Shown here piece after piece: positions 16,600 to 43,642 of a stretch of DNA of 64,000 nucleotides (position 1 is its first letter; each line of letters begins with the position of its first letter). This DNA comes from Jhaorihella sp. (GTDB lineage Bacteria > Pseudomonadota > Alphaproteobacteria > Rhodobacterales > Rhodobacteraceae). The notes beneath the pieces were generated by a model. That model was given only the letters and a program-made list of their open reading frames with translations, did no database searches and was not told the origin of the DNA. Both the position numbers and the translations under genes were made by a program. The stretch covers positions 21,946-85,945 of the forward strand of contig JBKEDD010000042.1 of NCBI GenBank assembly GCA_047975215.1. Reading direction: 5' to 3'.

Positions 16600-16601
16600 G
16601 G

Positions 16602-19195: not shown

Positions 19196-19211
19196 ACGGG
19201 GAGACTGACCT

Positions 19212-28875: not shown

Positions 28876-29645
28876 TGAGCATCGCAGCGATCCGCGACAC
28901 GGCGACCGCAATCGCCAGATCAGCCGGAGAGGTGGCCATGGCGCATTTCCGCACGCCGCTGCAGATCGACGCCAAGGCCGACGAAAGCCCGGTGACGCGC
29001 GCCGACCGCGAGACCGAGGCGCATATCCGCGCCGCCCTGGCCCGCGAATTTCCCGGCCACGGGATCCTGGGCGAGGAATATGGCGTCAGCGGGTCGCTGG
29101 AGGGCGATACCTGGGTGATCGACCCGATCGACGGCACCCGTTCGTTTATCACCGGCAATCCGCTGTTCGGGCTGCTGATGGCCTATCTTTCGGGCGGCGT
29201 GCCGCGCCTGGGGCTGGTCCATATGCCGGCACTGGGGGAAACCTATATTGGCGCAAGCGGCCTGGGGGCGGCGCGCAACGGTGTGCGCATCCGCTGCCGG
29301 GATACGGCGTCGCTCGATCATGCTTCGGTCTACATCAACGAAGCCGAGCGGGTGCGCACCATGGACGGCCCGCTGTTTGACCGGTTGTGCGGCATCGGCC
29401 GGACCCGGCGAATGAGCTATGACTGCTACCCCTATGCGCTGCTGGCGTCGGGCCAGATCGACGCGGTGGTCGATTGCGGGCTTGAGCCTTACGACTATCT
29501 GCCGCTGGTCGGTCTGATCGAGGCCGCGGGCGGGGTCATCACCGACTGGCAGGGCGGGGCGCTGACCCTGCGTTCCGACGGACGCGTAGCCGCGGCGGCG
29601 ACAAGGGCGCTGCACGGGGCGCTGCTTGAGGTTCTTGGCGGCTGA
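28875..29645 (+). CDS. Inositol-monophosphatase-family phosphatase (HisN-like)
   Basis: Motifs LGEE and WVIDPIDGTRSF. TGATG overlaps the DeoR stop. Confidence 0.75.
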   Translation: MSIAAIRDTATAIARSAGEVAMAHFRTPLQIDAKADESPVTRADRETEAHIRAALAREFPGHGILGEEYGVSGSLEGDTWVIDPIDGTRSFITGNPLFGLLMAYLSGGVPRLGLVHMPALGETYIGASGLGAARNGVRIRCRDTASLDHASVYINEAERVRTMDGPLFDRLCGIGRTRRMSYDCYPYALLASGQIDAVVDCGLEPYDYLPLVGLIEAAGGVITDWQGGALTLRSDGRVAAAATRALHGALLEVLGG

Positions 29646-30617: not shown

Positions 30618-30627
30618 GTGCCCTCCT

Positions 30628-33051
30628 TCAGGATTTCAGCCGTTGGTTCTGCGGGTCGTAAAGCGGGCCCTCGACGCGGGTCACGGGGTGGCGTTCGCCG
30701 AATACCTCGATCTCGAAATCGCCCTCGTCCCAGTATTGGCGGTCAAGATAGCCCAGCACGATGGTCTGCCCGACGGTGTGGCCAAAGCCCGCCGACGCGG
30801 CCAGCGACACCACCGCGCCATCCTTCAGGATGGTTTCGCCGCCGAACAGCGGCAGGCTTGCGGGCGTGACAAAGGTGCAAAGCCGCCGCGCCGGGCCTTG
30901 TGCCTTCTGCGCCTCCAGCACGCTGCGGCCGATGAAATCGCCCCCCGATCGCAGATGCACGCGAAAGCCCAGCCCCGCCTCGATCGGCGTGTAATCGGGC
31001 GAGATGTCGGCCGACCAGTAGAGATAGCCCTTTTCGAGCCGCAGCGAATCGATGGCGCGATAGCCGACATCGCGGATGCCGGCGCCTTGCCCGGCCCCGT
31101 GCAGCAGGTGGTAGACATGGGCGCCGAATTCGGTGGGCACATGCAATTCCCAGCCCAGTTCGCCGACGTATCCGATGCGCACCGCGCGCACCGGCGCGCA
31201 GCCGATGGTGATCTCGCGCGCCGTGGCGAAGGGAAAGGCGGCGTTCGATACATCTTCTTCGCAGACCGCGGCCAAAACTTCGCGCGCTTTCGGACCGCAC
31301 AGGTTGATGACCGCCCGCGCCGATGTGACCTCGATCAGATGCACGCTGCCATCTTTGGGCATGTGCCGCCTTATCCAGTCGGAATCATGGGTGCCGAAAC
31401 CCGCTCCGGTGACGAGGTAGAAATGTTGCGCGCCCAGCCGCGTTATCGTCACGTCGCATTCGATCCCGCCGTTTTCGTTGCACAGTTGCGCATAGATCAC
31501 CGATCCGGCGGGCCGGTCCATGTTGCAGGCCGCCAGCCGTTGCAGCAGCGCCAGCGCGCCGGGGCCGACGATTTCGAACTTGGCGAAACTGGTCTGGTCG
31601 ATCAGCGCCGCGCCTTCGCGCACGGCGCGGTGTTCGGCAGCGGCAAACTCGTGCCAGCCGGGATCGACAAAGCCCAGCCGGTCCTCGGCCGGAACGCCCT
31701 TGGGGGCGAACCACAACGGCCGTTCCCAGCCGTTCTTTGACCCCATGACCGCGCCGCGTTCCTTCAGGATCGCGTGCAGGGGCGAGAGGCGCAGATCGCG
31801 CGCACTTTCATATTCCTGGCCGGGATAGCGCATCTTGTAGTGATAGGCGTAATGCTCGACGGCGCGCGGATACATGAAGGCGCGGCTGCCGTGATGGGGG
31901 CCGAAACGGCGCACGTCCAGCGGCCACAGGTCAAGCCCGGGGCGGCCCCGGGTGATCCATTCCGCGATCATCTCGCCCGCGCCACCACCGGCGGCGATGC
32001 CGTAAAGGAACCCGGTCGCCAGCATCAGGTTGTCAAAGCCCGGCGCCCAGCCCATCACGAAATCGCCATCGGCCGAATAGGGGATCGGGCCGTTAATGAC
32101 CTGCCTTATGCCGACCTCGTTCAGCACCGGCGTTACCTGTGCCGCCAGTTCGGCCAGCGGCGCGAACCGTTCCATGTTGTCGGGCAGAAGCTGGCGGGCG
32201 AAATCGCCCGGGATGCCGCGCTCGCCAAAGGCGCGGGTGTCGTCCTCGTACCCGCCCAGCACCAGCCGCCCGCCGGCGTCGGGCTTGTAATAGACCAGCC
32301 GTTCGGGATCGCGCAGCGTCGGCAGGGTGCGCACCAGGTCGGGGTCGGGCAGGGGTTCTGTCACGATATACTGGTGTTCGACCGCGCAGGCCGGAACCCT
32401 GAGGCCCAGCTTCGCGCCCAGTTCGCGGCTCCACATGCCGGCGGCCAGAACAACGGTTTCGGCCTCCCAGTCGCCGTCGTCGGTCATCACCCGTGCGATG
32501 CGCCCGTCGCGCACGTCGAAATCCGTGACCCGCGCACCCTGGCGAATTTGCGCGCCGTGCAGCCGCGCGCCGGCGGCCAGCGCCTGGCACAACCCCGCCG
32601 GATCGACATGGCCGTCCGAGGGGATGAAGGCGGCGCCGGCAAGGCCGGTCGCGTCGATATAGGGAAACAGCGCCTTGGCCTCGGCGGCCGAGATCACCTG
32701 CATCTCAAGCCCGAAACTGCGCGCCATCGTGGCCAGGCGTTTCGCTTCGAGCAGCCGTTCGGGCGTGGCGGCCAGCCGCAGGCTTCCGACCTTTCTCCAG
32801 TCGAAATCAAGCCCGGTTTCCGGCCCCAGCCGGTCATAGAGCGCCACCGAGCGTTGCAGCATCCGCGTGGTGTTGCGCGAGGATCGCAACTGTCCCACCA
32901 GCCCGGCGGCGTGCCAGGTCGCGCCTTCGGTCAGTGCCGATTTCTCCAGCAGCACAACATCGGATTCGCCGTTGCGTGCCAGATGATAGGCGGTGGCGCA
33001 GCCGATGATGCCGCCGCCGATGATCAGATGCCGCGCGCTGTGGGTGGTCAT
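30628..33051 (-). CDS. FAD-dependent N-demethylating dehydrogenase with GcvT/folate domain, copy 2
   Basis: ATG start MTTHSARHLIIGGGIIGCATAYHL; the track starts at GTG 33078. 807 aa. Clear paralogue of 20421-22865. Confidence 0.85.
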   Translation of the reverse strand: MTTHSARHLIIGGGIIGCATAYHLARNGESDVVLLEKSALTEGATWHAAGLVGQLRSSRNTTRMLQRSVALYDRLGPETGLDFDWRKVGSLRLAATPERLLEAKRLATMARSFGLEMQVISAAEAKALFPYIDATGLAGAAFIPSDGHVDPAGLCQALAAGARLHGAQIRQGARVTDFDVRDGRIARVMTDDGDWEAETVVLAAGMWSRELGAKLGLRVPACAVEHQYIVTEPLPDPDLVRTLPTLRDPERLVYYKPDAGGRLVLGGYEDDTRAFGERGIPGDFARQLLPDNMERFAPLAELAAQVTPVLNEVGIRQVINGPIPYSADGDFVMGWAPGFDNLMLATGFLYGIAAGGGAGEMIAEWITRGRPGLDLWPLDVRRFGPHHGSRAFMYPRAVEHYAYHYKMRYPGQEYESARDLRLSPLHAILKERGAVMGSKNGWERPLWFAPKGVPAEDRLGFVDPGWHEFAAAEHRAVREGAALIDQTSFAKFEIVGPGALALLQRLAACNMDRPAGSVIYAQLCNENGGIECDVTITRLGAQHFYLVTGAGFGTHDSDWIRRHMPKDGSVHLIEVTSARAVINLCGPKAREVLAAVCEEDVSNAAFPFATAREITIGCAPVRAVRIGYVGELGWELHVPTEFGAHVYHLLHGAGQGAGIRDVGYRAIDSLRLEKGYLYWSADISPDYTPIEAGLGFRVHLRSGGDFIGRSVLEAQKAQGPARRLCTFVTPASLPLFGGETILKDGAVVSLAASAGFGHTVGQTIVLGYLDRQYWDEGDFEIEVFGERHPVTRVEGPLYDPQNQRLKS

Positions 33052-33107
33052 CGCCGTCGTCCCCCGGGAAATTGCCACTGGCTATTTCAGGTAGACTGAC
33101 AGAAACC

Positions 33108-33133: not shown

Positions 33134-33294
33134 TAAATGTGGGATTTCGCGGGGATTGGCGGATTCAATGTGGCTTTATCCGGAAGTTTTATGCGTGCCG
33201 CGTACTACGCCGGCCCTTTCGGACAGCCGCATCACCGCCCGGCGCGGCCCGCCCGGCGCGGCCCGGGGCGGGTGCCGCGCCGGGCTCGCCCCGC

Positions 33295-33705
33295 TCAGTC
33301 CAGCGATATCCGCCCCTTGCGGTCGTGGATGATGGCGTCGACTTCTATTTCGACCATCAGGCCGGGGGTGGTCAGGCCGGCCTCGACCCCGGTCAGGACC
33401 GGTTCGATGCCCTGGAACACCTCGCCGTGCCGGCGGATGAAACCGCCCGCATCGCGCATGTCGGTGACGAAGGCGCGGGTTCTGACCACATGGCGCATCT
33501 TGGCGCCGGCCTCTTTCAGCAGATCTTCGATCTTGTCGAAGATGAACACCGTCTGTTCATAGATGTCGAACGGGGCATAGACCTTGCCGTTGGACTGCAT
33601 GGAGGTCAGACCCGCGACGAACACGAAAGGGCCGACCCGCTTGACGCGGCTGTAGGATCCGGCTTTTTCGAACCGTCCGCCGCCTGATATGGTTTTTATC
33701 GTCAT
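33295..33705 (-). CDS. RidA/YjgF-family reactive-imine deaminase
   Basis: 136 aa. GPFVFVAG..R.FVTDM..pattern of the YjgF/RutC fold. Last gene of the operon. Confidence 0.8.
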   Translation of the reverse strand: MTIKTISGGGRFEKAGSYSRVKRVGPFVFVAGLTSMQSNGKVYAPFDIYEQTVFIFDKIEDLLKEAGAKMRHVVRTRAFVTDMRDAGGFIRRHGEVFQGIEPVLTGVEAGLTTPGLMVEIEVDAIIHDRKGRISLD

Positions 33706-33748
33706 GTGAAGTGCGAATGCCTTTCATGTTGATGAGCGCGTTGAAGTG

Positions 33749-35050
33749 TCAGCGGGCACGTGCCCTGTCGTCGCGCCGGTCCGCGATCCGGTAAAGCTGA
33801 TGCGCGAAGGGCAGGAACCACGGCGTCTTGCGGTACCAGAACCGGGTTTCCAGCGTGGTTTCGGTGAACGCCGTCGCGCCGGCCGGGTCGTCCATCATCA
33901 GCAGCGCCGCCTTGTGGCCCAGATAGGGTGCCATGGCGTTGCCGCTGCCGGAATAGCCCATCGCGTGCCAGATTCCGTCCAGCCGGCCGATATGGGGCAT
34001 GAACGAAAAGGTGAATCCGGTCTGGCCGGTCCAGCTGTGGGTGAGCTTCAGCGTTCTCGTTTGTGGAAAAATTTCTCCGAGCAACCCGTGCAGTACCCGG
34101 GCCGAGCGCGCGAGCGATACCCTGTTCATGGCCGCCCGCCCGCCCAGCACCAGCCGCCTGCCGTCCGGCGACAGCCGGAAATAGCAGTGCCGGTTGCGGG
34201 TTTCCACGCACATGCGCCGCCCCGGCATCAGGTCGTCGGCCATGCCCTCGGGCAGTTCCTCGGTCGCGATCAGAAAGCTCGACACCGGGATCATGCGGCG
34301 TTTCAGGTTCGGGAAATCCGGCGTGGTATAGCCGTTCGTGGCCATCAGTACCGCCGCGGCGCGGATTTCTCCCCTGGCGGTGGTCACAACGAATCCCGAA
34401 CCGGCGGGGCGAACATCGCGTACCGCCGTCTGCCCGAACACCCGTGCGCCGGCGCTTCGGGCGGCCTGCAATATGCCGGTCATGTACTTGCCCGGATGCA
34501 GGCCGCCGTGATCGTGCAGCAGCATGCCGCCGCTATACAGGCCCGATCCTATTTCCGCGCGCTGGCGTTCGGGGGGCACCATGTCGATATTGACCGCCAC
34601 CAGCTTGCGCAGATCGTCCAGCCCGCGGGCGGTTGCGTCGTATTCGGCCCGGTTCCACTGACCGCGGAACCGGCCATACTGGTGATAGTCGCACTCGATG
34701 CCTTCGTCGCGGATGCGCGACACCGCGAATGCAAGCGAATCGACATGCGATTCGACCAGCAGGCGCTGCGCGGTTTCCGCCCCGTATTTTTCAGCCATCT
34801 GTTCGGGCGACAAACGGTAGCCGCCGCCGATCATTCCGCCATTGCGCGTGCTTGCGCCCCAGCCCGGATCTTGTGCGTCAAGCGCGACCACGTCCTTGCC
34901 GGCCCGGGCCAGCGTCAGCGCCGCCGAGCAGCCGGTAAGCCCGGCCCCGACGATCACGACATCGCATTCGGCGGGTAGTTCGGGGGGCGGATCGGCGGGC
35001 CGGTCCCGGAACGGCGCGACGTCCTCCCACCAATAGGGATCGGGTTTCAT
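33749..35050 (-). CDS. FAD-dependent amine oxidoreductase (DAO fold, gamma-glutamylputrescine-oxidase-like)
   Basis: 433 aa. CDVVIVGAGLTGCSAAL dinucleotide-binding motif. Confidence 0.75.
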   Translation of the reverse strand: MKPDPYWWEDVAPFRDRPADPPPELPAECDVVIVGAGLTGCSAALTLARAGKDVVALDAQDPGWGASTRNGGMIGGGYRLSPEQMAEKYGAETAQRLLVESHVDSLAFAVSRIRDEGIECDYHQYGRFRGQWNRAEYDATARGLDDLRKLVAVNIDMVPPERQRAEIGSGLYSGGMLLHDHGGLHPGKYMTGILQAARSAGARVFGQTAVRDVRPAGSGFVVTTARGEIRAAAVLMATNGYTTPDFPNLKRRMIPVSSFLIATEELPEGMADDLMPGRRMCVETRNRHCYFRLSPDGRRLVLGGRAAMNRVSLARSARVLHGLLGEIFPQTRTLKLTHSWTGQTGFTFSFMPHIGRLDGIWHAMGYSGSGNAMAPYLGHKAALLMMDDPAGATAFTETTLETRFWYRKTPWFLPFAHQLYRIADRRDDRARAR

Positions 35051-35091
35051 GATGGTCCTGTCACTATATGCCGGCCGGGCCGGCTTCGGCT

Positions 35092-36501
35092 CTACTTGGC
35101 AATGCTCATGACCTGTATCTGGGTGTACTCATCCAGCCCTTCCTGGGATTGCTCGACACCCAGGCCCGAGGACTTGAACCCGGCCATTGGAATGTGCGGC
35201 CCGATATTGACGCACTGGTTCACCCAGACTGTGCCGCTCTGGATTTTCGACGCAATCTTGGTTGCCTTGCGTTCATCCCTGGACCAGACCGAACCGCCAA
35301 GCCCGTAATCCAGACCGTTGGCCTTTCTGGTGACGGATTTGGCGCTGGAGAACTTGATCACCGGCAGGATCGGGCCGAACTGTTCGAGATCGACGATATC
35401 GTCGCCATCCTTGACGTCGCGCACGATCACGGGGTTGACGAAATAGCCCTTCCGGCCCTTGACGACGCCGCCGCACAGGACCTTGCCATCCTTCTTGGCG
35501 CTCTTGATCAGGGCCTTGACCTTCTGGTACTGCGCCTTGTTCTGGATCGGGCCCATGGTCGCGCCCTGATGCATCCCGTCATCGACCACGGCCTGTTTGG
35601 CCAGCCGGACCAGTTCGTCGCAGAATTCGTCATGAATGTCCTTGTGGACATAGACCCGCTTGACCGCCATGCAGACCTGCCCGGCATTCATGAAGGCGCC
35701 GTTGAATATCTTGGCGGCGGTATCCTTCACATCCACGTCGGGCAGGATGATGGCCGGATCGTTGCCGCCCAGTTCGAGCGTCAGGCGCTTCACAGTGCCG
35801 GCCGCCGACGCCATGATCTTCTTGCCGGTCTCGGTCGAGCCGGTAAAGCTGACCTTGGCGACATCGGGGTGACTTGTCAGCACCTCGCCCAGGTCGTTTT
35901 CGTCCGTCACAGCGTTGATGACCCCGGCGGGAACGAAATCGTTGCACAGTTCCAGTATCCTGAGGATGGTCAGCGGCGTCGTCGGGGCGGGCTTGAGGAC
36001 GATGGTGTTGCCGGCCACCAGCGCCGGGCCGATCTTCCAGAACGGTACCAGCACGGGAAAGTTCCAGGGGCAGATGCCGGCCACCACGCCCAGCGGCACA
36101 CGACGAACCTCGATCTGGAAGGTTTCGTCGTCCTGTACCGTCCGGCCCCGTGGCTCAAGCGTCGCGTAGTGGCGCAGATAGCCTTCGGTCCAGGCCATTT
36201 CGCCCATCGATTCCGGCAGCGGCTTGCCCTGTTCCTTGGTCATCAACCGGGCCAGCATCTCGGCGTTGTTGGCGATCACGTCGGCGATTTTCGCCACGAC
36301 CGCCTGACGCTCGGACAGCGGTGTGGCGGCCCAGTCCGGAAATGCCGCCTTGGCCGCGGCGACCGCGTTGTCGATATCCTTGGGCGTGCCCTTGGGTACC
36401 CTCGCGAAGGTTTTTTCATCGGCCGGGTTGATAACGGCGATGGTCTTGCCCTTGGTGTCCTTTCCGACGAGTTTGCCGCCGATGAGCATTTTCTGAAACA
36501 T
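35092..36501 (-). CDS. NAD(P)-dependent aldehyde dehydrogenase
   Basis: 469 aa. CPWNFP, LELGGND and GQVCMAVKR catalytic Cys. AGGAGAG SD. Lys-rich compared with its neighbours. Confidence 0.85.
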   Translation of the reverse strand: MFQKMLIGGKLVGKDTKGKTIAVINPADEKTFARVPKGTPKDIDNAVAAAKAAFPDWAATPLSERQAVVAKIADVIANNAEMLARLMTKEQGKPLPESMGEMAWTEGYLRHYATLEPRGRTVQDDETFQIEVRRVPLGVVAGICPWNFPVLVPFWKIGPALVAGNTIVLKPAPTTPLTILRILELCNDFVPAGVINAVTDENDLGEVLTSHPDVAKVSFTGSTETGKKIMASAAGTVKRLTLELGGNDPAIILPDVDVKDTAAKIFNGAFMNAGQVCMAVKRVYVHKDIHDEFCDELVRLAKQAVVDDGMHQGATMGPIQNKAQYQKVKALIKSAKKDGKVLCGGVVKGRKGYFVNPVIVRDVKDGDDIVDLEQFGPILPVIKFSSAKSVTRKANGLDYGLGGSVWSRDERKATKIASKIQSGTVWVNQCVNIGPHIPMAGFKSSGLGVEQSQEGLDEYTQIQVMSIAK

Positions 36502-36545
36502 GTTTCTCTCCTGTTGGTGTCGCCATGCGGCGGCGCGGCCCCTTG

Positions 36546-37985
36546 TCAGGCCTTTCGCGCGGTGTTCCAGTCGAACGGGCGGTCGATTCCGGCCATCTTG
36601 ACGCCGGTAAATGCCGATGCCTCGAAGGACAGCGCCCGCAGATCCTCGGTTTCCAGGTTGTGCACCGAGGACTTGCCGCAGGCCTTGGCCAGCGCGGTGA
36701 TTTCCATCGTCATGGCGGTCAGGAACCGCGCCACGCGCTCGGCGCCGGCGGCGACGCTCATGCGCTTTTCAAGCTCCGCGTCCTGGGTCGCGATCCCCAT
36801 CGGGCACAGGCCCGTGTGGCAGTGATGGCAGGCCCCCGGGCTGGTCCCAAGCTTCTGGTAATCCTCCAGATATTGCGGTGCGTTGCAGCCAAGCGCAATC
36901 ATCGCGGCGTTGCCGATCATCACCGCATCGGCGCCCAGGGCAAGCGCCTTGGCGACATCGGTGCCGGTGCGGATGCCGCCCGCCGCGACCAGCGTCACCT
37001 TGCCCGTCATGCCGGCCTCGTCCAGCGCCTCGCGGGCCGCCGGGATCGCCGACATGGTCGGGATGCCGGTATGATTGAGAAGCATTTCCGGCGATGCTCC
37101 GGTGCCGCCCTCGGCGCCGTCGACAACCACGACATCGGCGCCCGCCTTGGCGGCGACGGCCACGTCGAACCGCGGCCGGGTCGCGCCCATCTTGATGAAG
37201 ATCGGCACCTGATAGTTGGTCGCGATGCGCAATTCCTCGATCTTGACGGCAAGGTCGTCGGCGCCCAGCCAGTCCGGATGGCGGATGGTGGAGCGTTGAT
37301 CGACGCCTTCGGGCAGGGTGCGCATCTTCGAGATTCGCGGGCTGACCTTCATGCCCAGCAACAACCCGCCGGTGCCCGGCTTGGCGCCTTGCCCGACCAC
37401 CAGTTCCAGCCCATCGGCACGGCGCAGATGGTCCAGATCGAGGCCGTAGCGCGCCGGGCTCATCTGATAGACCAGTTTTTTCGAGGCGGCGCGCTCTTCC
37501 TCCAGCATCCCGCCTTCGCCGGTGCAGGTCATGCTACCCGCTTTCGAGGCGCCGTGACCCAGCGATTCCTTGGCATTGGCCGACAGCGCGCCGAACGACA
37601 TCGAGGCGATGTAGATCGGGATATCAAGTTCGATCGGCTTTTCGACCAGCCCGCGGCCGCCGCCCAGAACCGTCCTGGTCTCGCATTTCTCGCGATAGCC
37701 TTCCAGCGGCAGGCGCGTCATCGTCGCGGGCACGAAGGTCAGGTCGTCGAATGTCGGCAGCCGCTTGTTGAAGCTGTTCCAGCCCCGCACCTGATAGCGG
37801 CCAAGCTGGGCCAGCGCGTGAACTTCCGATATCGCCTCGGGGGTCCAGCGCGTCGATCCGCCCCTGTCGTAGGACGCGGGAACCCCGGCCGGGCGGCCCT
37901 CTATCGCGGCCTCGCCGAAGGCAACCTGTTCCTCGGTCGCTTCCTCGAACGGATAGACATAGGGGGGTTTTATATCATCAGCCAT
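36546..37985 (-). CDS. Glutamate-synthase FMN/Fe-S domain protein (GltB2 / N-methylglutamate synthase subunit C-like)
   Basis: 479 aa. GEGGM, GAKPGTGG and CHTGLCP motifs. Overlaps the upstream gene by 16 nt. Confidence 0.8.
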   Translation of the reverse strand: MADDIKPPYVYPFEEATEEQVAFGEAAIEGRPAGVPASYDRGGSTRWTPEAISEVHALAQLGRYQVRGWNSFNKRLPTFDDLTFVPATMTRLPLEGYREKCETRTVLGGGRGLVEKPIELDIPIYIASMSFGALSANAKESLGHGASKAGSMTCTGEGGMLEEERAASKKLVYQMSPARYGLDLDHLRRADGLELVVGQGAKPGTGGLLLGMKVSPRISKMRTLPEGVDQRSTIRHPDWLGADDLAVKIEELRIATNYQVPIFIKMGATRPRFDVAVAAKAGADVVVVDGAEGGTGASPEMLLNHTGIPTMSAIPAAREALDEAGMTGKVTLVAAGGIRTGTDVAKALALGADAVMIGNAAMIALGCNAPQYLEDYQKLGTSPGACHHCHTGLCPMGIATQDAELEKRMSVAAGAERVARFLTAMTMEITALAKACGKSSVHNLETEDLRALSFEASAFTGVKMAGIDRPFDWNTARKA

Positions 37986-38677
37986 GCTTTTGCGTCCCTG
38001 CTTTCAAAATACCAAAGGCGCTGACCGGCGATGATGCGGCGCCAGTCGCGCGACGTGTCCTTGAGGCCGAGAGGGTCGAGAATGGCATCCACCTCGGCGA
38101 CCTGTTCGGCGCTCGGTTCGGTGACGACGGCATCGACGCCGAGATCCTGAACATCGCCCGTCACCCAGACCTCGCCCTCCCAGAGCGCATCGGCGCAACT
38201 GCCGCCGGCGCCGCCCAGCGCGATGATCTTGCCGCCATGCGCCATGAAGCCGGACTGATATCCGATCTTGCCCTCGACGATTATGTTGCCGTCCTTCATG
38301 GCAACGCCGACGCGCGGTCCGCAATCGCCCTTGACGTGGATTGTGCCGCCCAGCATCGCGGCACCCACCGACATGCCGGCATAGCCGCCAACGGTGACAT
38401 GTCCGCCGCTCATCGCCTCGCCGCAGCCCCAGCCGGCGTTGCGTTCGATCTCGATGCGCGCTCCGGTGTTCAGACCGCCGCAGTAATAGCCGACCGAGCC
38501 TTCGAATCGGACCTTGCAGCCCGGCGGCAGCCCGACGCCAAGGTTGTGGCGCGACAGCGTGTTGGTGACGAGGATCGACTTGCCGGCACTCGCTGCCTCG
38601 AGGATCTCCATGTGAACTTCACGGACCGGGCGCTTGCCCACCTCGATGACGACCTCGTTGGTGACGACCTCGTTCAT
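37970..38677 (-). CDS. GXGXG-motif glutamate-synthase C-terminal-domain protein (subunit B-like)
   Basis: 235 aa with repeated G.G.G beta-helix strings (GSVGYYCGG, GGHVTVGGYAG, GGTIHVKG). Confidence 0.8.
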   Translation of the reverse strand: MNEVVTNEVVIEVGKRPVREVHMEILEAASAGKSILVTNTLSRHNLGVGLPPGCKVRFEGSVGYYCGGLNTGARIEIERNAGWGCGEAMSGGHVTVGGYAGMSVGAAMLGGTIHVKGDCGPRVGVAMKDGNIIVEGKIGYQSGFMAHGGKIIALGGAGGSCADALWEGEVWVTGDVQDLGVDAVVTEPSAEQVAEVDAILDPLGLKDTSRDWRRIIAGQRLWYFESRDAKAWLMI

Positions 38678-39621
38678 GCCGCTTCCCTCCGGTTGCCGAC
38701 GCCCCAGATGCCCTGCTGGGCCGGACCGTCGTAGTTGAGAATCGCGATGTCGTCGTCTTCCAAGACCCGGCGCACCGACTGTTCCTCGGTCGCTGCCGCG
38801 ATCTCGCCGTTTCGGTTGACCACGACCAGCGGCTTCATGGCGAACCGGTCCTTGGCAAAGCCGATCTGGTCGGGCATCGAGATCATGAAGGTGAAAACCC
38901 CGTCAATTTCCCGGATCGAACGGGTCAGGGCCTGGTCCATGCTCAGACCTTCCTTCATCCGGTCCGATACCCAGACGGCGATCAGTTCGCTGTCGTTATA
39001 GGTCAGGAACCGGTAGCCCTTGTGTTCCAGCCGGTTGCGCCAGGAATAGTAATCGGTGATCTGGCCGTTGTGCACGATGGCGACATCCGGAAAGGGGCGC
39101 GCCCAGAACGGGTGGCTGGCATTTGGCCGCACGTCGGACTCGGTGGCCAGCCGGGCATGGCCCAGACCGTGCGTGCCGATCATGTCGCGCACGCCATGCT
39201 TGTCGGCGACCTCGTAGGCGCCGCCGGTATCCTTGATGATTTCAAGCGACCGGCCTACCGACAGCATTTCGAGCCGCGTGCAGATTTCGTCCGCGTCCGC
39301 CGTCCAGCGCGCCAGATCGTCGGGTTCGGTGATCGTCATGCGCACCGAATAGTGGCTGGAGCGGCCGTTGTCCCAGGTCGGTTCGTCGATGAAGTCGCCG
39401 CCATGCTCCTTCAGGATGGCGCGAAACTCGTCGAGATCGCGCCCGAGCATGTCGCGATCGAACCCCATGGCCCGAACGATGTAGCCGTTGTCACGGGGTA
39501 CACCGTAGATGGCAAACCCGGTCGAATCCGCGCCCCTGTGTTCCTGCGCATCCATCAGCTCGACCAGATCGCGCCCGACCTGACCCGGCGCGTTCAGTAT
39601 TCTACCAGCAATTCCGCACAT
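38674..39621 (-). CDS. Class-II (Ntn) glutamine-amidotransferase-like protein (subunit A-like)
   Basis: MCGIAG N-terminal nucleophile. 315 aa. ATGA overlaps the next gene. Confidence 0.8.
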   Translation of the reverse strand: MCGIAGRILNAPGQVGRDLVELMDAQEHRGADSTGFAIYGVPRDNGYIVRAMGFDRDMLGRDLDEFRAILKEHGGDFIDEPTWDNGRSSHYSVRMTITEPDDLARWTADADEICTRLEMLSVGRSLEIIKDTGGAYEVADKHGVRDMIGTHGLGHARLATESDVRPNASHPFWARPFPDVAIVHNGQITDYYSWRNRLEHKGYRFLTYNDSELIAVWVSDRMKEGLSMDQALTRSIREIDGVFTFMISMPDQIGFAKDRFAMKPLVVVNRNGEIAAATEEQSVRRVLEDDDIAILNYDGPAQQGIWGVGNRREAA

Positions 39622-39646
39622 GGCGTCCCTTTCGAAATCAACGAGT

Positions 39647-39662
39647 ATACTGTATACAGTAT
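39647..39662. promoter_or_regulatory. Perfect 16-bp palindrome ATACTGTATACAGTAT (GntR-type operator) between the operon and gntR
   Basis: Read directly. Matches the GT-N-AC style of FadR/GntR boxes. Lies 26 nt upstream of the amidotransferase start. Confidence 0.55.
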
Positions 39663-39754
39663 TTTGTACGTTTCAACCGTTAAGAGATCGCGCCGCCATA
39701 TTCGTCTTTTCGACATGGCCTGAATAGGATAGCCATCCGGCGCAGGAGGCCCCG

Positions 39755-40417
39755 ATGCCCTTCAAACCACTGTCTCAGCCGCGCGTGCGCCTTGCCGATC
39801 AGGTCTATGACCAGATCATGCAGGCGATTCGCGACGGCTCGATTTCGCCGGACGACCGGATCGTCCAGGAAAAGCTGGCCGAGGAATTCGAGATCAGCCG
39901 CACGCCGATCCGCGAGGCCCTGTTCCGGATGGAGCAGGAAGGCATCCTGGTCGTCGCCGGGCGCGGCGGTTTCCGGATCCGGCGCCTCGAACAGGGCGAG
40001 ATCGCCGAACTCTACGGTGCCCGCGCCTCAATCGAGGGGTTCGCCGCGCGGCTGCTGGCCGAGTCGGGCGATGCGCAGACCTGTGAACGCCTGCGCCGGC
40101 AGATCACCGCAGCCGAAGACCTGAAGGTAAACACCGTAGAGGCCTATTTCGACGCCAACATGTCGATCCACCGCGCCTTCGTGCAGGCCACTGGCAACCG
40201 CTTTTTGCTGGAGTTCTTCGACAACATCTGGAACCGGGGTTCCTCGTTCACGCTGTTCGCCTCGATCCGCGGCGCGGATCTGTCGAAATCGCTGGGCGAT
40301 CACCTGGGCCTTGTGGATGCCATCGAGACCGGCAACGGATCGGCGGCTGCCGAAAAGATGATCGCGCATATCTATGACGGCGAGAAATTGCAGATGAAGG
40401 GCATGGACCTCGCCTGA
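39755..40417 (+). CDS. GntR-family regulator (FadR/FCD subfamily)
   Basis: 220 aa. LAEEFEISRTPIREAL HTH plus an FCD C-terminal domain. AGGAGG SD. Confidence 0.85.
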   Translation: MPFKPLSQPRVRLADQVYDQIMQAIRDGSISPDDRIVQEKLAEEFEISRTPIREALFRMEQEGILVVAGRGGFRIRRLEQGEIAELYGARASIEGFAARLLAESGDAQTCERLRRQITAAEDLKVNTVEAYFDANMSIHRAFVQATGNRFLLEFFDNIWNRGSSFTLFASIRGADLSKSLGDHLGLVDAIETGNGSAAAEKMIAHIYDGEKLQMKGMDLA

Positions 40418-40442
40418 ACCCCGACCCGGAAGGATGACGCAT

Positions 40443-41966
40443 ATGTACGAGCGCAACCATCTCGCCGCGCGCCTGCGCAAGGCCAGCATCGGGTTCGAGG
40501 ATGCGCCGTTCCTGCACGACCGGCAGACCGGGGAAACGGTGACATATGGCGACTTCTTCGCCAATGCCGAGAGAATGGCGGCGGTTCTCGCCGCTGCGGG
40601 GGTATGCCCCGGTGACCGGGTCGCGGTGCAGGCGCCCAAGACGCGGGCGATGCTGGAACTCTATGTTGGCACGGTCATGGCCGGGGGCGTCTTCCTGCCG
40701 CTGAACCCGGCCTATACCGGGGCCGAACTTGCCTATTTCCTGAACGATGCCGAACCGCGCCTGCTGGTCTGCGATCCCGGCAGGCGCGACACGCTCGGGC
40801 CGGTCGCCGAACAGGCCGGGGTCGCCGAGATCCTGACCATCGCCGCCGACGAGGGCGGCAGCCTGACCGCGCGGCGCGACCGTGCCGATCCGGGGTTTAC
40901 GGTGGTGGAACGCGGCCCCGACGATCTGGCCGCGATCCTTTACACCTCGGGCACCACGGGGCGGTCGAAAGGCGCGATGCTGACACATGACGCACTGGCT
41001 TCGAACTCGCAAACGCTCAGGGACTGCTGGCGCTTTGGCCGCGACGACGTGCTGATCCACGCCTTGCCGATCTTTCACACGCACGGGTTGTTCGTGGCCA
41101 CCAATATCGCGCTGATGTCGGGGTCGTCCTGCATCTTCCTTTCCGGGTTCGATGCCCGGACCGTTCTTGATTGCATGCCCCAAGCCACCGCGCTGATGGG
41201 GGTGCCCACCTTCTATGTGCGGCTACTTGAACTGGACGGGCTGGCGCGGGCTGCCGGGGGCATGCGCCTGTTCGTCTCCGGCTCGGCGCCGCTTCTGGCT
41301 GAAACCCACGACCGCTGGCGCAAGGTGACGGGCCATGCCATCCTTGAACGCTATGGCATGACCGAAACCAACATGAACACGTCCAACCCCTATGACGGCG
41401 AGCGGCGCGCCGGCACCGTCGGCTTCCCGCTGCCGGGGGTCGAACTCGTCGTGACCGACCCGGACACCGGCGCCGAACGGGAGCGGGGCGAGATCGGGGT
41501 TATCGAGGTGCGCGGGCCGAACGTGTTCGCCGGCTACTGGCGGATGCCCGAAAAGACCCGCGAAGAACTGCGCGAGAACGGCTTTTTCATCACCGGCGAT
41601 CTGGGCCGGATCGACGGCGACGGGTATGTCCATATCGTCGGGCGCGGCAAGGATCTTATCATCACCGGCGGCTATAACGTCTACCCCAAGGAGGTCGAAC
41701 TGCTGATCGACGACTTGCCCGGGGTGCGCGAAAGTGCCGTGATCGGCGTGCCGCATCCTGATTTCGGCGAAGCCGTGGTTGCCGTTGTGGTGCCCGAAAC
41801 GGGCGCCGCGCCGACGCCCGAACAGGTCATGGCCGGCATCGAAGCCGACCTGGCGCGCTTCAAACAGCCCAAACGCGTGTTCATCGTCGATGAACTGGTG
41901 CGCAACACCATGGGCAAGGTTCAGAAGAACGTGCTGCGCGAACGTTATCGCGCGGTCTTCGCCTGA
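40443..41966 (+). CDS. matB: Malonyl-CoA synthetase-like AMP-forming acyl-CoA ligase
   Basis: N-terminus and DRVAVQ..K...L.LY......G.V.LPLN.AYT..EL.YF..DAEPRL.VCDP resemble rhizobial MatB. AMP motif YTSGTTGRSKG. ATG 40443 is better spaced from GGAAGG than 40434. Confidence 0.65.
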   Translation: MYERNHLAARLRKASIGFEDAPFLHDRQTGETVTYGDFFANAERMAAVLAAAGVCPGDRVAVQAPKTRAMLELYVGTVMAGGVFLPLNPAYTGAELAYFLNDAEPRLLVCDPGRRDTLGPVAEQAGVAEILTIAADEGGSLTARRDRADPGFTVVERGPDDLAAILYTSGTTGRSKGAMLTHDALASNSQTLRDCWRFGRDDVLIHALPIFHTHGLFVATNIALMSGSSCIFLSGFDARTVLDCMPQATALMGVPTFYVRLLELDGLARAAGGMRLFVSGSAPLLAETHDRWRKVTGHAILERYGMTETNMNTSNPYDGERRAGTVGFPLPGVELVVTDPDTGAERERGEIGVIEVRGPNVFAGYWRMPEKTREELRENGFFITGDLGRIDGDGYVHIVGRGKDLIITGGYNVYPKEVELLIDDLPGVRESAVIGVPHPDFGEAVVAVVVPETGAAPTPEQVMAGIEADLARFKQPKRVFIVDELVRNTMGKVQKNVLRERYRAVFA

Positions 41967-41995: not shown

Positions 41996-43504
41996 TCAGA
42001 TATCGAAGGATACCCCCTGCGCCAGCGGCAGTTCGGTGGAATAGTTCACCGTGTTGGTTGCCCGGCGCATATACCCCTTCCACGCGTCCGAGCCGGATTC
42101 GCGCCCGCCGCCGGTTTCCTTCTCACCGCCGAACGCGCCGCCGATTTCGGCGCCCGAGGTGCCGATATTGACGTTGGTGATGCCGCAGTCGGACCCCGAG
42201 GCACCCATGAAGCGTTCGGCCTCGCGCATGTCGAGCGTGAAGATCGACGCCGACAGCCCGGCACCGACGGCGTTGTGCATCTCGATCGCCTGCTCCAGCG
42301 TGTCGTATTTCATGACATAGAGGATCGGCGCGAAGGTCTCCTCGCAGACTATGCCGTCCTGCGCCGGCATCTCGGCCAGGGCGGGACGCGCGTACCAGGC
42401 GTTTTCGTCACCGGTCATGACGCGCTCGCCGCCGGTAATCGTGCCGCCCTGCTTTCGTGCCGAATCCAGCGCCGATTGCATCGCGTCAAAGGCGGGTTTA
42501 TCGATCAGCGGCCCGACCAGAAAGTCGCCCTCAAGCGGATTGCCGACCCGGACCGAGCCGTAGGCGCGGCGCAGCGGCTCGACCACCTCGTCATAGATGC
42601 TGCGATGCACGATCAGGCGGCGCATCGAGGTGCATCGCTGGCCGGCGGTGCCCATGGCGCCGAAGGCGACGGCGCGCACCGTCATGCCGATATCGGCCGA
42701 CGGGCAGACGATGCCGGCGTTGTTGCCGCCCAGTTCGAGGATCGACCGGGCAAAGCGGGCGGCCAGTTTCGGCGCCACGGCGCGCCCCATGCGGGTCGAG
42801 CCGGTGGCCGACAGCAGCGCCACGTCGCGGTGTTCGACCAGGCATTCGCCCAGTTCCGGCCCGCCGACCAGCACCGAAACGAGGTTCTCGGGCGCGTCGC
42901 CGAACCGGTCCAGCGCGCGTTGCAGCACCGCCATCGTCGCCAGCGCGGTCAGCGGCGTCTTTTCCGACGGTTTCCAGATCACCGGGTTGCCGCAGACCAG
43001 CGCCAGGGCGGCGTTCCACGAGAATACGGCAACGGGAAAGTTGAACGCGGTGATGACACCGACCACACCCAGCGGATGCCATTGTTCCATCATCCGGTGG
43101 CCCGGGCGTTCGGTGGCGATGGTCAGCCCGTATAGCTGGCGCGACAGGCCGACGGCAAAGTCGCATATGTCGATCATCTCCTGTACCTCGCCGGCGCCTT
43201 CCGACGGGATCTTGCCCACTTCGAGCGAGACCAGCCGGCCCAGATCGTCCTTGGCGGCGCGCAGTTCCTCGCCGAACAGGCGGATCAGCTCGCCGCGCCG
43301 CGGCGCCGGCACCTCGCGCCAAAGCGCGAACGCCTTGCGGGCGCGGCCGATGGCGTCTTCGGCGTCGGCCACGCCGTGGCGCTCAAGGCGCGCGATCTCG
43401 GTTCCGGTCAGCGGCGATTCGACGCAAAGATCGCCCCCCGTCAGCGATTGGGGCGCCACGCCCAGGCGTTTCAGCACGTCGCGGGTCTGGTCTGCTATGG
43501 TCAT
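41996..43504 (-). CDS. amaB: ALDH7-type aldehyde dehydrogenase (L-piperidine-6-carboxylate / alpha-aminoadipic semialdehyde dehydrogenase-like)
   Basis: Start MTIADQTRDVLKRLGV. EVQEMIDICDFAVGLSRQLYG block typical of ALDH7. The track ORF carries a 27-aa upstream extension. Confidence 0.65.
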   Translation of the reverse strand: MTIADQTRDVLKRLGVAPQSLTGGDLCVESPLTGTEIARLERHGVADAEDAIGRARKAFALWREVPAPRRGELIRLFGEELRAAKDDLGRLVSLEVGKIPSEGAGEVQEMIDICDFAVGLSRQLYGLTIATERPGHRMMEQWHPLGVVGVITAFNFPVAVFSWNAALALVCGNPVIWKPSEKTPLTALATMAVLQRALDRFGDAPENLVSVLVGGPELGECLVEHRDVALLSATGSTRMGRAVAPKLAARFARSILELGGNNAGIVCPSADIGMTVRAVAFGAMGTAGQRCTSMRRLIVHRSIYDEVVEPLRRAYGSVRVGNPLEGDFLVGPLIDKPAFDAMQSALDSARKQGGTITGGERVMTGDENAWYARPALAEMPAQDGIVCEETFAPILYVMKYDTLEQAIEMHNAVGAGLSASIFTLDMREAERFMGASGSDCGITNVNIGTSGAEIGGAFGGEKETGGGRESGSDAWKGYMRRATNTVNYSTELPLAQGVSFDI

Positions 43505-43534
43505 CCTGTCGGTCTCCGGCCTTGGAAATTCGCG

Positions 43535-43586: not shown

Positions 43587-43642
43587 ACTAGGCCAGGACC
43601 GGGTTTTGCCGAAATGTTCTTTCGGCAGGCTCAGATGCAGGA

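Follow-up and report, generated by a model that had tools for sequence, protein, structure and literature searches.

The minus strand between positions 33295 and 39621 of the window (the whole 64-kb stretch of a marine Rhodobacteraceae genome analyzed here) carries six intact, tightly packed genes. We give about an even chance to their being a catabolic operon under GntR control that serves a primary amine of at least two carbons and follows the N-methylglutamate pathway in its plan. Such a larger primary amine is probably degraded by way of an N-alkylglutamate, with an aldehyde and then an acid as products. The first three genes encode a trio of subunits (A, B and C) that is a widespread cousin of the methylamine (N-methylglutamate) pathway, and that in other bacteria is found beside the MIC2 microcompartment.

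Organization and control of the operon

From 5′ to 3′ in the operon, the ORF calls on the window give A, B, C, an aldehyde dehydrogenase (ALDH), a DAO-fold oxidase and a Rid protein. Overlaps of 4 nt (A and B, 38674–38677) and 16 nt (B and C, 37970–37985) join the trio genes, and relatives' loci have identical ones. The remaining spacers (C-ALDH, ALDH-oxidase and oxidase-Rid) are 44, 41 and 43 nt. The ORF coordinates bear out the six packed minus-strand genes and both overlaps of the initial annotation. Its block end at 39662 is noncoding and is the end of a palindrome (39647–39662) in the promoter region. Directly 3′ of the Rid stop codon is a GC-rich stem-loop (33238–33294, minus strand; MFE −54 kcal/mol), followed by ~110 bp of higher AT content and then the next gene. 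The operon may end at this stem-loop; its z is only −1.64 versus shuffles, so that the stem-loop alone is not significant.

The palindrome, ATACTGTATACAGTAT, is perfect over 16 bp (39647–39662, on neither strand in particular) and is the presumed operator of a divergent GntR/FCD (FadR-type) regulator (39755–40417, plus strand) with GntR and FCD domains. This protein presumably regulates the six-gene operon via the palindrome. The window contains one copy, where shuffles predict 0 even with 3 mismatches allowed. Across ~25 clade loci from four bacterial families the palindrome recurs with 0–2 mismatches, 36–65 bp upstream of the A start codon, and it was absent from the canonical mgsABC loci when sought there. 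In essentially all loci of the clade a regulator orthologue (48–83% identity) sits beside the trio, and only in L016 is it not divergent. A sigma-70-like promoter match (TTGAAA-16-TACAGT, 39649–39676, minus strand), a match to the consensus only, places its −10 element inside the palindrome. With 2 such matches found in the region and 2.0 expected, it is weak alone; what sets it apart is that it overlies the conserved operator.

A malonyl-CoA synthase of the MatB family (40434–41966, plus strand; NF005702, 789 bits versus a cut-off of 558) starts 16 nt past the GntR stop codon; it probably shares a transcript with the regulator. Whether it belongs to the amine system is uncertain. An amidase, a malonyl-CoA decarboxylase and MatB adjoin the GntR gene in the relative L005, and the other relatives do not have them.

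The A-B-C trio and its clade

The trio was initially described as an Ntn amidotransferase-like protein, a GXGXG protein and an FMN/Fe-S glutamate synthase (GltS) domain protein, and a domain search confirmed this content. Subunit A (38674–39621, minus strand, 315 aa; GATase_6/7) starts with MCGIAG and is a class-II (Ntn) glutamine-amidotransferase-like protein of the GlxB/MgsA type. It retains the full set of catalytic motifs (Cys1 in MCGIAG, RGxDS, R-ATES, HNG and NDSE), which predicts a competent hydrolase of gamma-glutamyl amides. Subunit B (37970–38677, minus strand, 235 aa) is a GXGXG protein like the GltS C-terminal domain (PF01493, 49 bits). Subunit C (36546–37985, minus strand, 479 aa) contains the FMN-binding GltS domain (PF01645 Glu_synthase, 327 bits), preceded by a clade-specific N-terminal extension of ~40 aa. 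Its four-cysteine motif, GC...C-HH-C-HTGL-C-P, is kept across the clade and is gone from the MgsC of Paracoccus aminophilus and Methylobacterium.

Identities inside the clade are 66–87% for A and 70–91% for B, and each of the best 120 database clusters is at least 84% identical to C. To the methylotroph MgsA and MgsB, A and B are about 29–35% identical (A, 29–32% to MgsA of P. aminophilus and A. caldus; B, 33–35% to canonical MgsB). For C, identity to the MgsC encoded at three reference loci (P. aminophilus pAMI6, Methylobacterium bullatum and A. caldus) is 54–56%. All three loci have glnT/gmaS; sarcosine-oxidase-type mgd genes are annotated in those of P. aminophilus and A. caldus, the latter having folD/purU as well. 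An NJ tree puts the window's C inside a tight clade apart from methylotroph MgsC, with an actinobacterial GS-plus-BMC locus as sister. The trio is thus a clearly distinct paralogue, not an orthologue, of methylotroph MgsABC. The distinction from bona fide MgsABC on which the initial annotation depended held in this comparison.

This separation bears on the reading of the trio as a genuine methylamine N-methylglutamate synthase, in which a single-chain, THF-dependent DMGDH-like flavoprotein (30628–33078) would replace MgdABCD by demethylation. That gene lies 216 bp downstream of Rid, and its DAO, FAO_M and GCV_T domains suit N-demethylation with C1 capture. Some sources call clade members "methylamine-glutamate N-methyltransferase subunit C", and a coral Ruegeria study scored such extra copies as gmaS/mgsABC. 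We nevertheless find the reading improbable. Besides the separate clade, the DMGDH-like gene is unlinked to the trio in every close relative, forms a conserved unit of its own together with a choline-kinase-like gene and a DeoR regulator, and has no copy of ATACTGTATACAGTAT before it. A C1 unit borne on THF would also have no use for an ALDH, acyl-CoA ligases or an aldehyde-type microcompartment. It is highly improbable that the trio acts as an assimilatory glutamate synthase of the split archaeal kind (glutamine + 2-oxoglutarate to glutamate), with unrelated passengers downstream, even though it contains each of the three domains of the GltS large subunit, and the Ntn cysteine, FMN domain and Fe-S cysteines are all in place. 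The window has no GltD-like or other electron-donor subunit, the trio of every relative sits in a catabolic cluster under a GntR repressor-type regulator, and what lies downstream are conserved partners rather than passengers.

The clade (C at least 84% identical) spans Rhodobacteraceae, Thiotrichaceae, Granulosicoccaceae and Hyphomicrobiales, and has two kinds of back end, counted on the 23 loci with enough flanking sequence. In the microcompartment type (12 loci), an MSOX/MTOX-like oxidase and a GS-like ligase are followed by MIC2 shell proteins, an ALDH of the acetylating type, an MDH-like protein and Rid. This type also includes a 399-aa full-length homologue of the opine dehydrogenase CENDH (PDB 1bg6; E = 5e-13) and, in some relatives, a class-I GATase. 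The shell-free type (L005, L091, L092, L093 from Sulfitobacter sp. JB4-11, L094 and, in part, L018) has a GS-like gene, a PRK12583 fatty-acid CoA ligase, ALDH469, an MbcS/acetate-CoA-ligase-like enzyme, DAO430 and sometimes Rid, along with a Peripla_BP_6 ABC transporter. Both CoA ligases of the full shell-free cluster are of the short-chain monocarboxylate class. We infer that both back ends make an acyl-CoA from an aldehyde, one by an acylating ALDH in a shell and the other by an ALDH plus a ligase. The full cluster comprises 8–10 genes (A-B-C, GS-like, CoA ligase, ALDH, CoA ligase, oxidase, Rid and transporter). The window carries a trimmed shell-free type, which has lost both CoA ligases, the GS-like ligase and the transporter.

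In the whole 64-kb window, tblastn found no GS-like/GlnT/PuuA, PuuD, GltD, SoxB/D/A-type Mgd subunit or BMC shell protein; the sole matches to the partner queries were partial domain similarities to the oxidase and two DMGDH-like genes. The initially reported absence of gmaS and mgdABCD therefore holds for the entire window. The idea of a system built without a gamma-glutamyl-amide synthetase does not, as a GS-like gene adjoins the trio in 17/23 informative clade loci, all closest relatives included. By this comparison, the missing gmaS is a lineage-specific loss and no design feature. Among 24 informative loci (the 23 plus the window), ALDH directly follows C only in the window. This arrangement, with the ligases and transporter missing, could suggest a decaying remnant that has had no working pathway since the GS-like ligase, CoA ligases and transporter were lost. 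We think this quite improbable given six intact ORFs, a perfect operator and purifying selection on all six genes (dN/dS = 0.03–0.13 versus L005 and L091), though at dS ~1–1.6 a function lost very recently would escape dN/dS.

Downstream enzymes and a possible route

The ALDH (35092–36501, minus strand, 469 aa; Aldedh, 517 bits) is NAD(P)-dependent and non-acylating. Its best NCBIfam matches (aminobutyraldehyde, betaine-aldehyde and phenylacetaldehyde dehydrogenases) all fall under their cut-offs, and it is 76% identical to the ALDH at the same position in L005 and L091. The oxidase (33749–35050, minus strand, 433 aa; DAO, 204 bits) is a PuuB-family FAD-dependent amine oxidoreductase, with 75–80% identity to the same-position gene in L005 and L091 and 50% in the gammaproteobacterial L018. 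The earlier label "PuuB-like" is sound (34% identity to E. coli PuuB over 370 aa, E = 2e-53). The last gene encodes a Rid (YjgF/L-PSP) protein (33295–33705, minus strand, 136 aa; Ribonuc_L-PSP PF01042, 74 bits; best PDB match 3i7t). It shares 91–93% identity with its counterparts in L005 and L091, and 60% with the Rid closing the MIC2 microcompartment locus of R. pomeroyi. The 2-iminoacid deaminase activity of Rid proteins needs an arginine, which is a leucine in this arginine-less subfamily. Without the catalytic Arg, and at 45.7 bits versus the TIGR00004 cut-off of 106, the protein is of the Rid family and not a canonical RidA; its residues do not support the initial name "RidA imine deaminase". 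The linkage of these genes to the trio is seen elsewhere, with all three in L005, L091 and L094 and ALDH plus oxidase in L092 and L093.

Clade-wide, the trio is always coupled to secondary-amine-oxidizing and aldehyde-handling enzymes, which supports the N-alkylglutamate idea in outline. A-B-C would place the amine nitrogen onto C2 of glutamate/2-oxoglutarate at the FMN subunit, giving an N-alkyl-L-glutamate. The amine could arrive at C free, or via a gamma-glutamyl-alkylamide cut by the Cys1 amidotransferase subunit; the amide-forming GS-like ligase would be encoded elsewhere in the genome or dispensed with. The PuuB-family flavoprotein would then oxidize the N-alkyl C-N bond to an imine, yielding glutamate and an aldehyde, Rid may work on that imine, and the ALDH would convert the aldehyde to an acid. 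Each chemical step, like the substrate class, is deduced from gene content. Short or branched alkylamines are favored by the two short-chain acyl-CoA ligases and LIV-type transporter of the full-length relatives. In P. putida, canonical mgsABC alone converted free methylamine to N-methylglutamate, with a yield 2.5-fold below that reached with gmaS (PMC6237917), so a trio without a GS-like partner is plausible. Of the initial proposal of an N-alkylglutamate route for an amine of at least two carbons, the gene partners in the clade are as predicted; "without gmaS" as a design feature is not.

Several observations count against this model. The arginine-less Rid argues against the imine-deaminase step, and the model gives no account of the retained four-cysteine motif in C, nor of an electron donor, for which the six-gene block has no candidate. 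The literature searched documents no N-alkylglutamates besides N-methylglutamate. Short of the GS-like ligase, CoA ligases and transporter, the window may hold an incomplete pathway or one put to another use. The malonyl-CoA synthase next to the operon is a hint of a dicarboxylate product, e.g., from beta-alanine, a poor fit to a simple alkylamine.

PuuB acts on the primary amine of a gamma-glutamylated diamine, not on a secondary amine, and so the oxidase could act on a gamma-glutamyl intermediate instead. A Puu/Pau-type gamma-glutamylation route for a diamine, polyamine or amino alcohol is unlikely, though less so than the other alternatives. A GS-like ligase encoded elsewhere would gamma-glutamylate one amino group, the PuuB-like oxidase and ALDH would turn the free end into an acid, and A-B-C would replace PuuD, cleaving the gamma-glutamyl amide and handing on the amino acid. 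The oxidase is a true PuuB homologue and A has an intact glutaminase-type site. The ALDH is closest to the aminobutyraldehyde dehydrogenase subfamily, albeit under the cut-off, and is only 32% identical to PuuC. The relatives' GS-like protein is equally near PuuA (30%) and GlnT/GmaS (31%), and the class-I GATase of some microcompartment-type relatives has PuuD's fold, a likeness by fold class only. The malonyl-CoA synthase would fit 1,3-diaminopropane or beta-alanine going through malonate semialdehyde to malonate. However, this reading gives no reason why plain amide hydrolysis should need an FMN/Fe-S GltS domain and a GXGXG subunit, and the two monocarboxylate CoA ligases of the full cluster, and the opine-dehydrogenase homologue and MSOX/MTOX-like oxidase of the microcompartment type, are left unaccounted for.

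Comparison with known systems

One of the closest known systems is the N-methylglutamate pathway (GmaS, MgsABC and MgdABCD) of methylotrophs such as Methylobacterium extorquens DM4, Methyloversatilis universalis FAM5 and P. aminophilus. The three-subunit A-B-C order and domain families are shared, as is, in most trio relatives, a GS-like gamma-glutamyl-amide synthetase partner, which the window lacks. Unlike that pathway, the clade has its own GntR regulator and operator, a C subunit set apart from the MgsC of P. aminophilus and Methylobacterium by its extension and Fe-S cysteines, and, in place of MgdABCD and folD/purU, a monomeric flavoprotein, ALDH(s), and CoA ligases or a microcompartment. 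The Puu/Pau pathway for putrescine and other polyamines (E. coli PuuABCD) is resembled in the ALDH followed by a PuuB-family oxidase in the window, and in the GS-like ligase and, in some, class-I GATase of relatives. Puu has no counterpart of the GltS-like trio, the window has no PuuA or PuuD, and the full cluster has monocarboxylate CoA ligases in place of a GABA aminotransferase.

The ipu isopropylamine-utilization cluster of Pseudomonas sp. KIE171, for a non-methyl alkylamine, reportedly groups a GS-like gamma-glutamyl-alkylamide synthetase (IpuC) with an amidotransferase-like IpuA, a GXGXG-like IpuB and an ALDH. Unlike the trio, it reportedly has no FMN GltS-domain subunit; a P450 is said to hydroxylate the gamma-glutamyl amide, which is then hydrolyzed.

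The MIC2 microcompartment is catalogued with 22 loci of unknown function (Sutter et al., 2021, PMC8217296, Supplementary Data 2). The description given there (AldDh, a pfam02866 LDH/MDH with an N-terminal extension, a 6PGDH-superfamily protein and a pfam00120 GS) matches the relatives' loci, and the catalogue text searched has 0 hits for pfam01645 and pfam01493 of the GltS-like trio. Such loci are flanked or closed by orthologues of the window's trio, regulator and Rid; the window differs in having no shell proteins, a cytosolic ALDH and a different oxidase. Opine dehydrogenases and MSOX/MTOX oxidases cleave N-substituted amino acids. Unlike the microcompartment-type loci, where homologues of both (CENDH, PDB 1bg6, for the former) partner the trio, the window has a PuuB-family oxidase in that place, and such cleavage is the reaction that we propose here.

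The operon and its regulation

The six tightly packed minus-strand genes described in the initial annotation are present in the window (G+C ~65 %), and Pfam and NCBIfam agree on every domain that it named. Subunit A (38674-39621; 315 aa, starting MCGIAG) carries a GATase_6/7 domain, subunit B (37970-38677) a GXGXG domain and subunit C (36546-37985) a Glu_synthase domain (PF01645, 327 bits). They are followed on the same strand by an aldehyde dehydrogenase (ALDH; 35092-36501), a DAO-fold flavoprotein oxidase (33749-35050) and a Rid-family protein (33295-33705; PF01042, 74 bits). The A-B overlap is 4 nt and the B-C overlap 16 nt; the three later genes are set off by gaps of 44, 41 and 43 nt. Codon-position G+C of all six ORFs follows the pattern of real genes. 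In the trio, whose genes are adjacent and in the order A-B-C, the amidotransferase, GXGXG and FMN domains of GltS each have a homologue encoded as its own polypeptide, and subunit A has intact glutaminase motifs, among them the Ntn cysteine of MCGIAG. The N-terminus of B (38630-38677) starts MNEVVTNEVVIEVG, with an apparent 5-residue tandem duplication (NEVVT/NEVVI); relatives read MSDVVIEVG. A dead remnant is unlikely, as the six genes and their regulator are under strong purifying selection (dN/dS 0.03-0.13 against the related loci L005 and L091, with dS ~1-1.6).

Two of the downstream genes had been given functional names. The "PuuB-like" oxidase is a real homologue of E. coli PuuB, with 34 % identity across a 370-aa alignment (E = 2e-53); its score against the pipecolate oxidase AmaA is sub-threshold (167 bits, cut-off 600). 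The "RidA imine deaminase" is a Rid-family protein: it has the YjgF/L-PSP fold (PF01042), but lacks the catalytic arginine (Arg105 in Salmonella numbering) and scores 45.7 bits against TIGR00004, where the cut-off is 106. A leucine aligns with the PAR arginine of 2csl, and all Rid proteins of the clade (loci with a C subunit at least 84 % identical to that of the window) read PVL or PVM there. With leucine at the catalytic position, a role in 2-iminoacid deamination cannot be assumed. The closest solved structure is 3i7t.

The end coordinate first assigned to the block, 39662, closes a perfect 16-bp palindrome, the presumed operator ATACTGTATACAGTAT (39647-39662), and not a gene. The palindrome lies in a 133-bp intergenic region, overlapped by a promoter-like match, next to a divergent regulator with GntR and FCD domains (39755-40417, plus strand). 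ATACTGTATACAGTAT recurs with 0-2 mismatches 36-65 bp upstream of the A start codon at ~25 loci from four bacterial families. Its 12-bp core, ACTGTATACAGT, is found once per locus in almost all clade loci and in none of the canonical mgsABC loci, which marks out a regulon distinct from that of the methylamine genes. Within the window the palindrome is unique even at three mismatches (0 expected by chance), which argues that the DMGDH-like flavoprotein gene downstream of the operon is outside the regulon. A 216-bp gap separates the Rid gene from the next gene. The hairpin after Rid is GC-rich and not significant against shuffles (z = -1.64), and terminator and promoter scans gave no significant result. 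Two microcompartment-type loci have a second operator core just downstream of Rid (L016, 20525-20536; L019, 12970-12981). This copy presumably controls a following operon, possibly a transporter. The conserved operator and its GntR regulator provide a handle for finding the inducer.

Relationship of the trio to MgsABC and its neighbors in the window

A scan of one genome per species for relatives of subunit C returned two populations. The first comprises ~20 loci with C 84-96 % identical, from Rhodobacteraceae, Thiotrichaceae/Thiolinea, Granulosicoccaceae and Hyphomicrobiales. A large further group matches at 50-62 % and mostly has a glutamine-synthetase-like (GS-like) gene directly upstream of A-B-C, the canonical gmaS-mgsABC order. 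The plasmid collection contained no clade member, all 255 protein-level matches being below 60 % identity; at the DNA level only an unrelated AmaB-type ALDH and the kinase/DMGDH-like pair described below matched. As reference MgsABC we used the loci of Paracoccus aminophilus JCM 7686 (pAMI6), Methylobacterium bullatum and Acidithiobacillus caldus, proxies for the genetically verified DM4 and FAM5 systems. The P. aminophilus and A. caldus loci are textbook N-methylglutamate clusters, with glnT and sarcosine-oxidase-type subunits and, in A. caldus, also folD and purU.

The window proteins are 54-56 % (C) and 29-35 % (A and B) identical to these references. In a neighbor-joining tree of C, rooted on the FMN domain of E. 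coli GltB and built without support values, the window falls within a tight, long-stemmed clade apart from the methylotroph sequences; the sister of this clade is an actinobacterial locus with a GS-like gene and shell proteins. Further marks of the clade are an N-terminal extension of ~40 aa on C and four retained cysteines (GC...C-HH-C-HTGL-C-P) aligned with the Fe-S ligands of GltB. Given the separate clade, its specific C features and the low identity, the trio does not cluster tightly with verified MgsABC. That it is a distinct, presumably non-methylamine paralogue is much more secure than the N-alkylglutamate scheme discussed below. Among the canonical enzymes, the MgsC proteins of the alphaproteobacterial methylotrophs P. 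aminophilus and M. bullatum have all four GltS-aligned cysteines replaced (GDNDP...YDDWHEGKDP), and the gmaS-linked ones of A. caldus and actinobacteria keep them, as does the window clade. The cofactor content of N-methylglutamate synthases probably differs between lineages.

If the trio were nevertheless a true methylamine enzyme, it might be served by the adjacent DMGDH-like protein (30628-33078). We consider this unlikely in view of the phylogeny, the synteny and the missing operator at the DMGDH-like gene. That gene and its choline-kinase neighbor were rejected as operon members: elsewhere they form an independent conserved unit, in the window they have no copy of the operator, and in relatives they are unlinked to the trio. 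Two paralogous pairs of this kind lie on the minus strand of the window (20427-23677 and 29688-33078), each combining a gene that resembles choline/ethanolamine kinases with one for a DMGDH-like flavoprotein (DAO, FAO_M, GCV_T). Identity between the two copies is 49 % for the flavoproteins and 26 % for the kinases. The stretch separating the pairs (23755-27853, 28027-29645) encodes an ABC transporter of the OpuAC type, with binding protein, ATPase and fused permease, as well as a member of the inositol-monophosphatase family and a DeoR regulator. On an Alisedimentitalea plasmid the kinase, the DMGDH-like gene and DeoR are again found as a unit. The gene set suggests a pathway for an amino alcohol that is both N-methylated and phosphorylated; we know of no characterized example. 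Upstream of it is a plus-strand run of TRAP-transporter genes (14614-20279), namely a DctM-domain protein (14614-16599) and a DctQ, DctM and DctP set (17179-20279), with no link to the operon seen.

On the other side, 16 nt separate the end of the GntR gene from a malonyl-CoA synthase gene of the MatB family (40434-41966, plus strand; 789 bits), and the two probably share a transcript. In L005, the closest relative, an amidase, a malonyl-CoA decarboxylase and MatB adjoin the GntR gene in the opposite orientation (3238-7530). Together these genes keep beta-alanine-type substrates open. The next minus-strand pair (41996-44569), AmaB and a LysR regulator, was rejected as part of the system. AmaB exceeds the cut-off of the L-piperidine-6-carboxylate dehydrogenase model NF050084 (794 bits, cut-off 730), so that the pair reads as a lysine/pipecolate module.

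Clade loci and the microcompartment link

The main new information comes from what the trio is attached to elsewhere. Besides the window, 23 clade loci had enough flanking sequence to be counted (from L001-L023, L033 and L091-L096); the near-identical L002 and L003 were counted within L001, four contigs too short downstream of C were excluded, and genes were called as longest ORFs. Twelve of the 23 are of a microcompartment type. A divergent GntR gene, A-B-C and sometimes a class-I GATase come first; next are an opposite-strand flavoprotein similar to MSOX/N-methyltryptophan oxidase, a GS-like ligase and, last, a microcompartment operon. The latter encodes BMC-P, BMC-H, a 399-aa protein, an acetylating-type ALDH, BMC-T, an N-terminally extended MDH-like protein and a Rid protein 60 % identical to that of the window. 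Five further loci (L005, L091, L092, L094 and, from the isolate Sulfitobacter sp. JB4-11, L093), together with a gammaproteobacterial variant (L018), are shell-free. Here the order is GntR, A-B-C, a GS-like ligase, a PRK12583-type fatty-acid CoA ligase, a 469-aa ALDH (76 % identical to that of the window), a second CoA ligase closest to MbcS/acetate-CoA ligase, a 430-aa DAO protein (75-80 % identical to the window oxidase), Rid in three of the five, and a Peripla_BP_6 ABC transporter. The remaining five (L006, L007, L008, L015 and L096) show the regulator and trio with no back end within reach. The ALDH, oxidase and Rid genes of the proposed block are therefore syntenic with the trio in the shell-free relatives; an ALDH directly after C occurs in the window and in none of the 23.

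The initial annotation also remarked on the absence of gmaS and mgdABCD, which is true of the entire 64-kb window. Searches with tblastn across it found no GS-like ligase (GlnT, GmaS or PuuA type) and no PuuD or GltD homologue; nor does it contain SoxB/D/A-type Mgd subunits, a folD or purU partner, microcompartment shell proteins (BMC-H, BMC-T, BMC-P) or an acylating-ALDH homologue. Relatives carry a GS-like gene (~31 % identical to GlnT) and never mgdABCD. By C, the nearest relatives of the window are L005 (96 %) and the database proteins P0002, P0003 and P0005-P0007 (91-94 %), and a GS-like gene is shown in the same cluster as the trio for P0003, P0005 and P0006; the contigs of P0002 and P0007 agree in length with ones that gave GS-like matches. 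The simplest history is therefore that the window lineage lost the GS-like gene, both CoA ligases and the transporter. The lack of gmaS in the window is a derived state. NCBI has a C protein identical to that of the window under the name of a Jhaorihella sp. MAG (Rhodobacteraceae), and an 11-kb Logan contig of the MAG shows the genes arranged as in the window. With the GS-like protein of L005 as query, none of the best 120 protein-database matches, few of which are named, was named Jhaorihella.

The microcompartment-type loci match MIC2 of the bacterial microcompartment catalogue. The catalogue text on MIC2 gives 22 loci with no known function and no recognized aldehyde-generating enzyme, labels the 399-aa protein only as "6PGDH-like superfamily", and makes no mention of a GltS-like trio (PMC8217296). 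In a Ruegeria pomeroyi strain the 399-aa protein (L001, 15500-16699) shows homology to the opine dehydrogenase CENDH along its entire length (PDB 1bg6, E = 5e-13) and is a candidate for the signature enzyme of MIC2. For a microcompartment listed without one, this is a concrete, testable hypothesis: the opine-dehydrogenase-like enzyme would cleave an N-substituted glutamate to release an aldehyde inside the shell. The literature searched, on MIC2, roseobacter microcompartments, mgsABC-like systems and N-alkylglutamates, described no function for MIC2. Upstream of GntR in L001 and L096 (~1-7540), carried by R. pomeroyi strains and Falsiphaeobacter marinintestinus, are a LIV/amide-type ABC transporter, a GerE regulator and two dimethylformamidase-like genes, one a DMF_alpha-permease fusion and the other DMFA2_C. 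With these genes ahead of the trio, the amine may derive from N-substituted amides.

A proposed N-alkylglutamate route and known systems

The N-methylglutamate pathway begins with a GS-like enzyme that forms gamma-glutamylmethylamide. MgsABC (EC 2.1.1.21) converts the amide or free methylamine to N-methylglutamate (glutamate + methylamine -> N-methylglutamate + NH3), and a THF-linked four-subunit dehydrogenase removes the methyl group. When mgsABC is expressed alone, methylamine still yields N-methylglutamate, in a 2.5-fold smaller amount than when gmaS is present (PMC6237917). For the window we infer a related sequence in which A-B-C would convert an amine to an N-alkylglutamate, the oxidase would turn this into glutamate and an aldehyde, and the ALDH would oxidize the aldehyde to an acid; any gamma-glutamyl donor required would come from elsewhere. 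Oxidation of an N-alkyl group larger than methyl would give a free aldehyde, which THF could not capture. Taken as a whole, this scheme seems to us evenly poised between right and wrong.

The clade partners predicted to act on amine C-N bonds belong to three families, the MSOX/MTOX-like oxidase, the opine-dehydrogenase homologue and the PuuB-family oxidase. MSOX/MTOX-like oxidases and opine dehydrogenases both cleave N-substituted amino acids. The aldehyde would be disposed of either by an acylating ALDH in a protein shell or by a soluble ALDH and then short-chain acyl-CoA ligases. These partners are what an N-alkylglutamate route for alkyl groups larger than methyl needs, and the strongest argument for the scheme is that both back ends would reach acyl-CoA by non-homologous means. 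Our guess at the substrates, loosely drawn from the LIV-type transporter and the families of the CoA ligases, is short or branched alkylamines. The most serious rival is a pathway like Puu/Pau, in which the oxidase substrate would be a gamma-glutamylated di- or polyamine, with the trio in place of PuuD. The PuuB homology of the oxidase favors it, and genes of both other kinds, putative PuuA-type ligases and PuuD-type hydrolases, occur in some relatives. It leaves the FMN/Fe-S subunit, the CoA ligases and the opine-dehydrogenase homologue unexplained, and we think it rather improbable.

Tentatively, the N-alkylglutamate reading can be extended to the whole clade as a general route for non-methyl primary amines, one that might be the missing aldehyde-generating front end of MIC2. 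A GS-like ligase would form a gamma-glutamyl-alkylamide, A-B-C would convert this to the N-alkylglutamate, and a secondary-amine oxidase or opine-type dehydrogenase would release glutamate and aldehyde. The window would then be a minimal form, free of shell and ligases, that acts directly on the free amine. In the literature searched we found no description of this trio clade, or of any N-alkylglutamate besides N-methylglutamate. The interest lies in the exposure of the clade and its tie to MIC2 more than in the window's own block. Automatic annotation names the clade genes mgsABC or "glutamate synthase family", and in marine studies they enter the count of methylamine genes. Should the clade act on other amines, inferences on methylated-amine cycling by Roseobacter-type bacteria would be partly wrong. 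Experiments are feasible because there are cultured carriers (Sulfitobacter sp. JB4-11, Falsiruegeria mediterranea M17, Lentibacter algarum, Ruegeria profundi and some R. pomeroyi strains). The trio might also serve biocatalytically to make N-alkylated glutamates.

With GltS/GOGAT the trio shares the Ntn cysteine, the FMN domain and the Fe-S cluster cysteines. A split assimilatory GltS is unlikely, however, as the window has no GltD homologue and the context in all relatives is catabolic and GntR-controlled. With the Puu/Pau pathway the operon shares a homologue of PuuB, the gamma-glutamyl-amine oxidase; PuuA and PuuD have no tblastn match in the window. The shell genes and acylating ALDH of MIC2 adjoin orthologous trios in the 12 microcompartment-type loci, but are missing from the window. 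MgsABC has the same three-polypeptide A-B-C architecture, yet the window trio appears not to be orthologous to that of methylamine-utilizing methylotrophs, and their linkage to gmaS, mgdABCD and C1-folate genes is absent around it. The trio system is best filed as a variant of the N-methylglutamate-type pathway, with the window as a reduced member.
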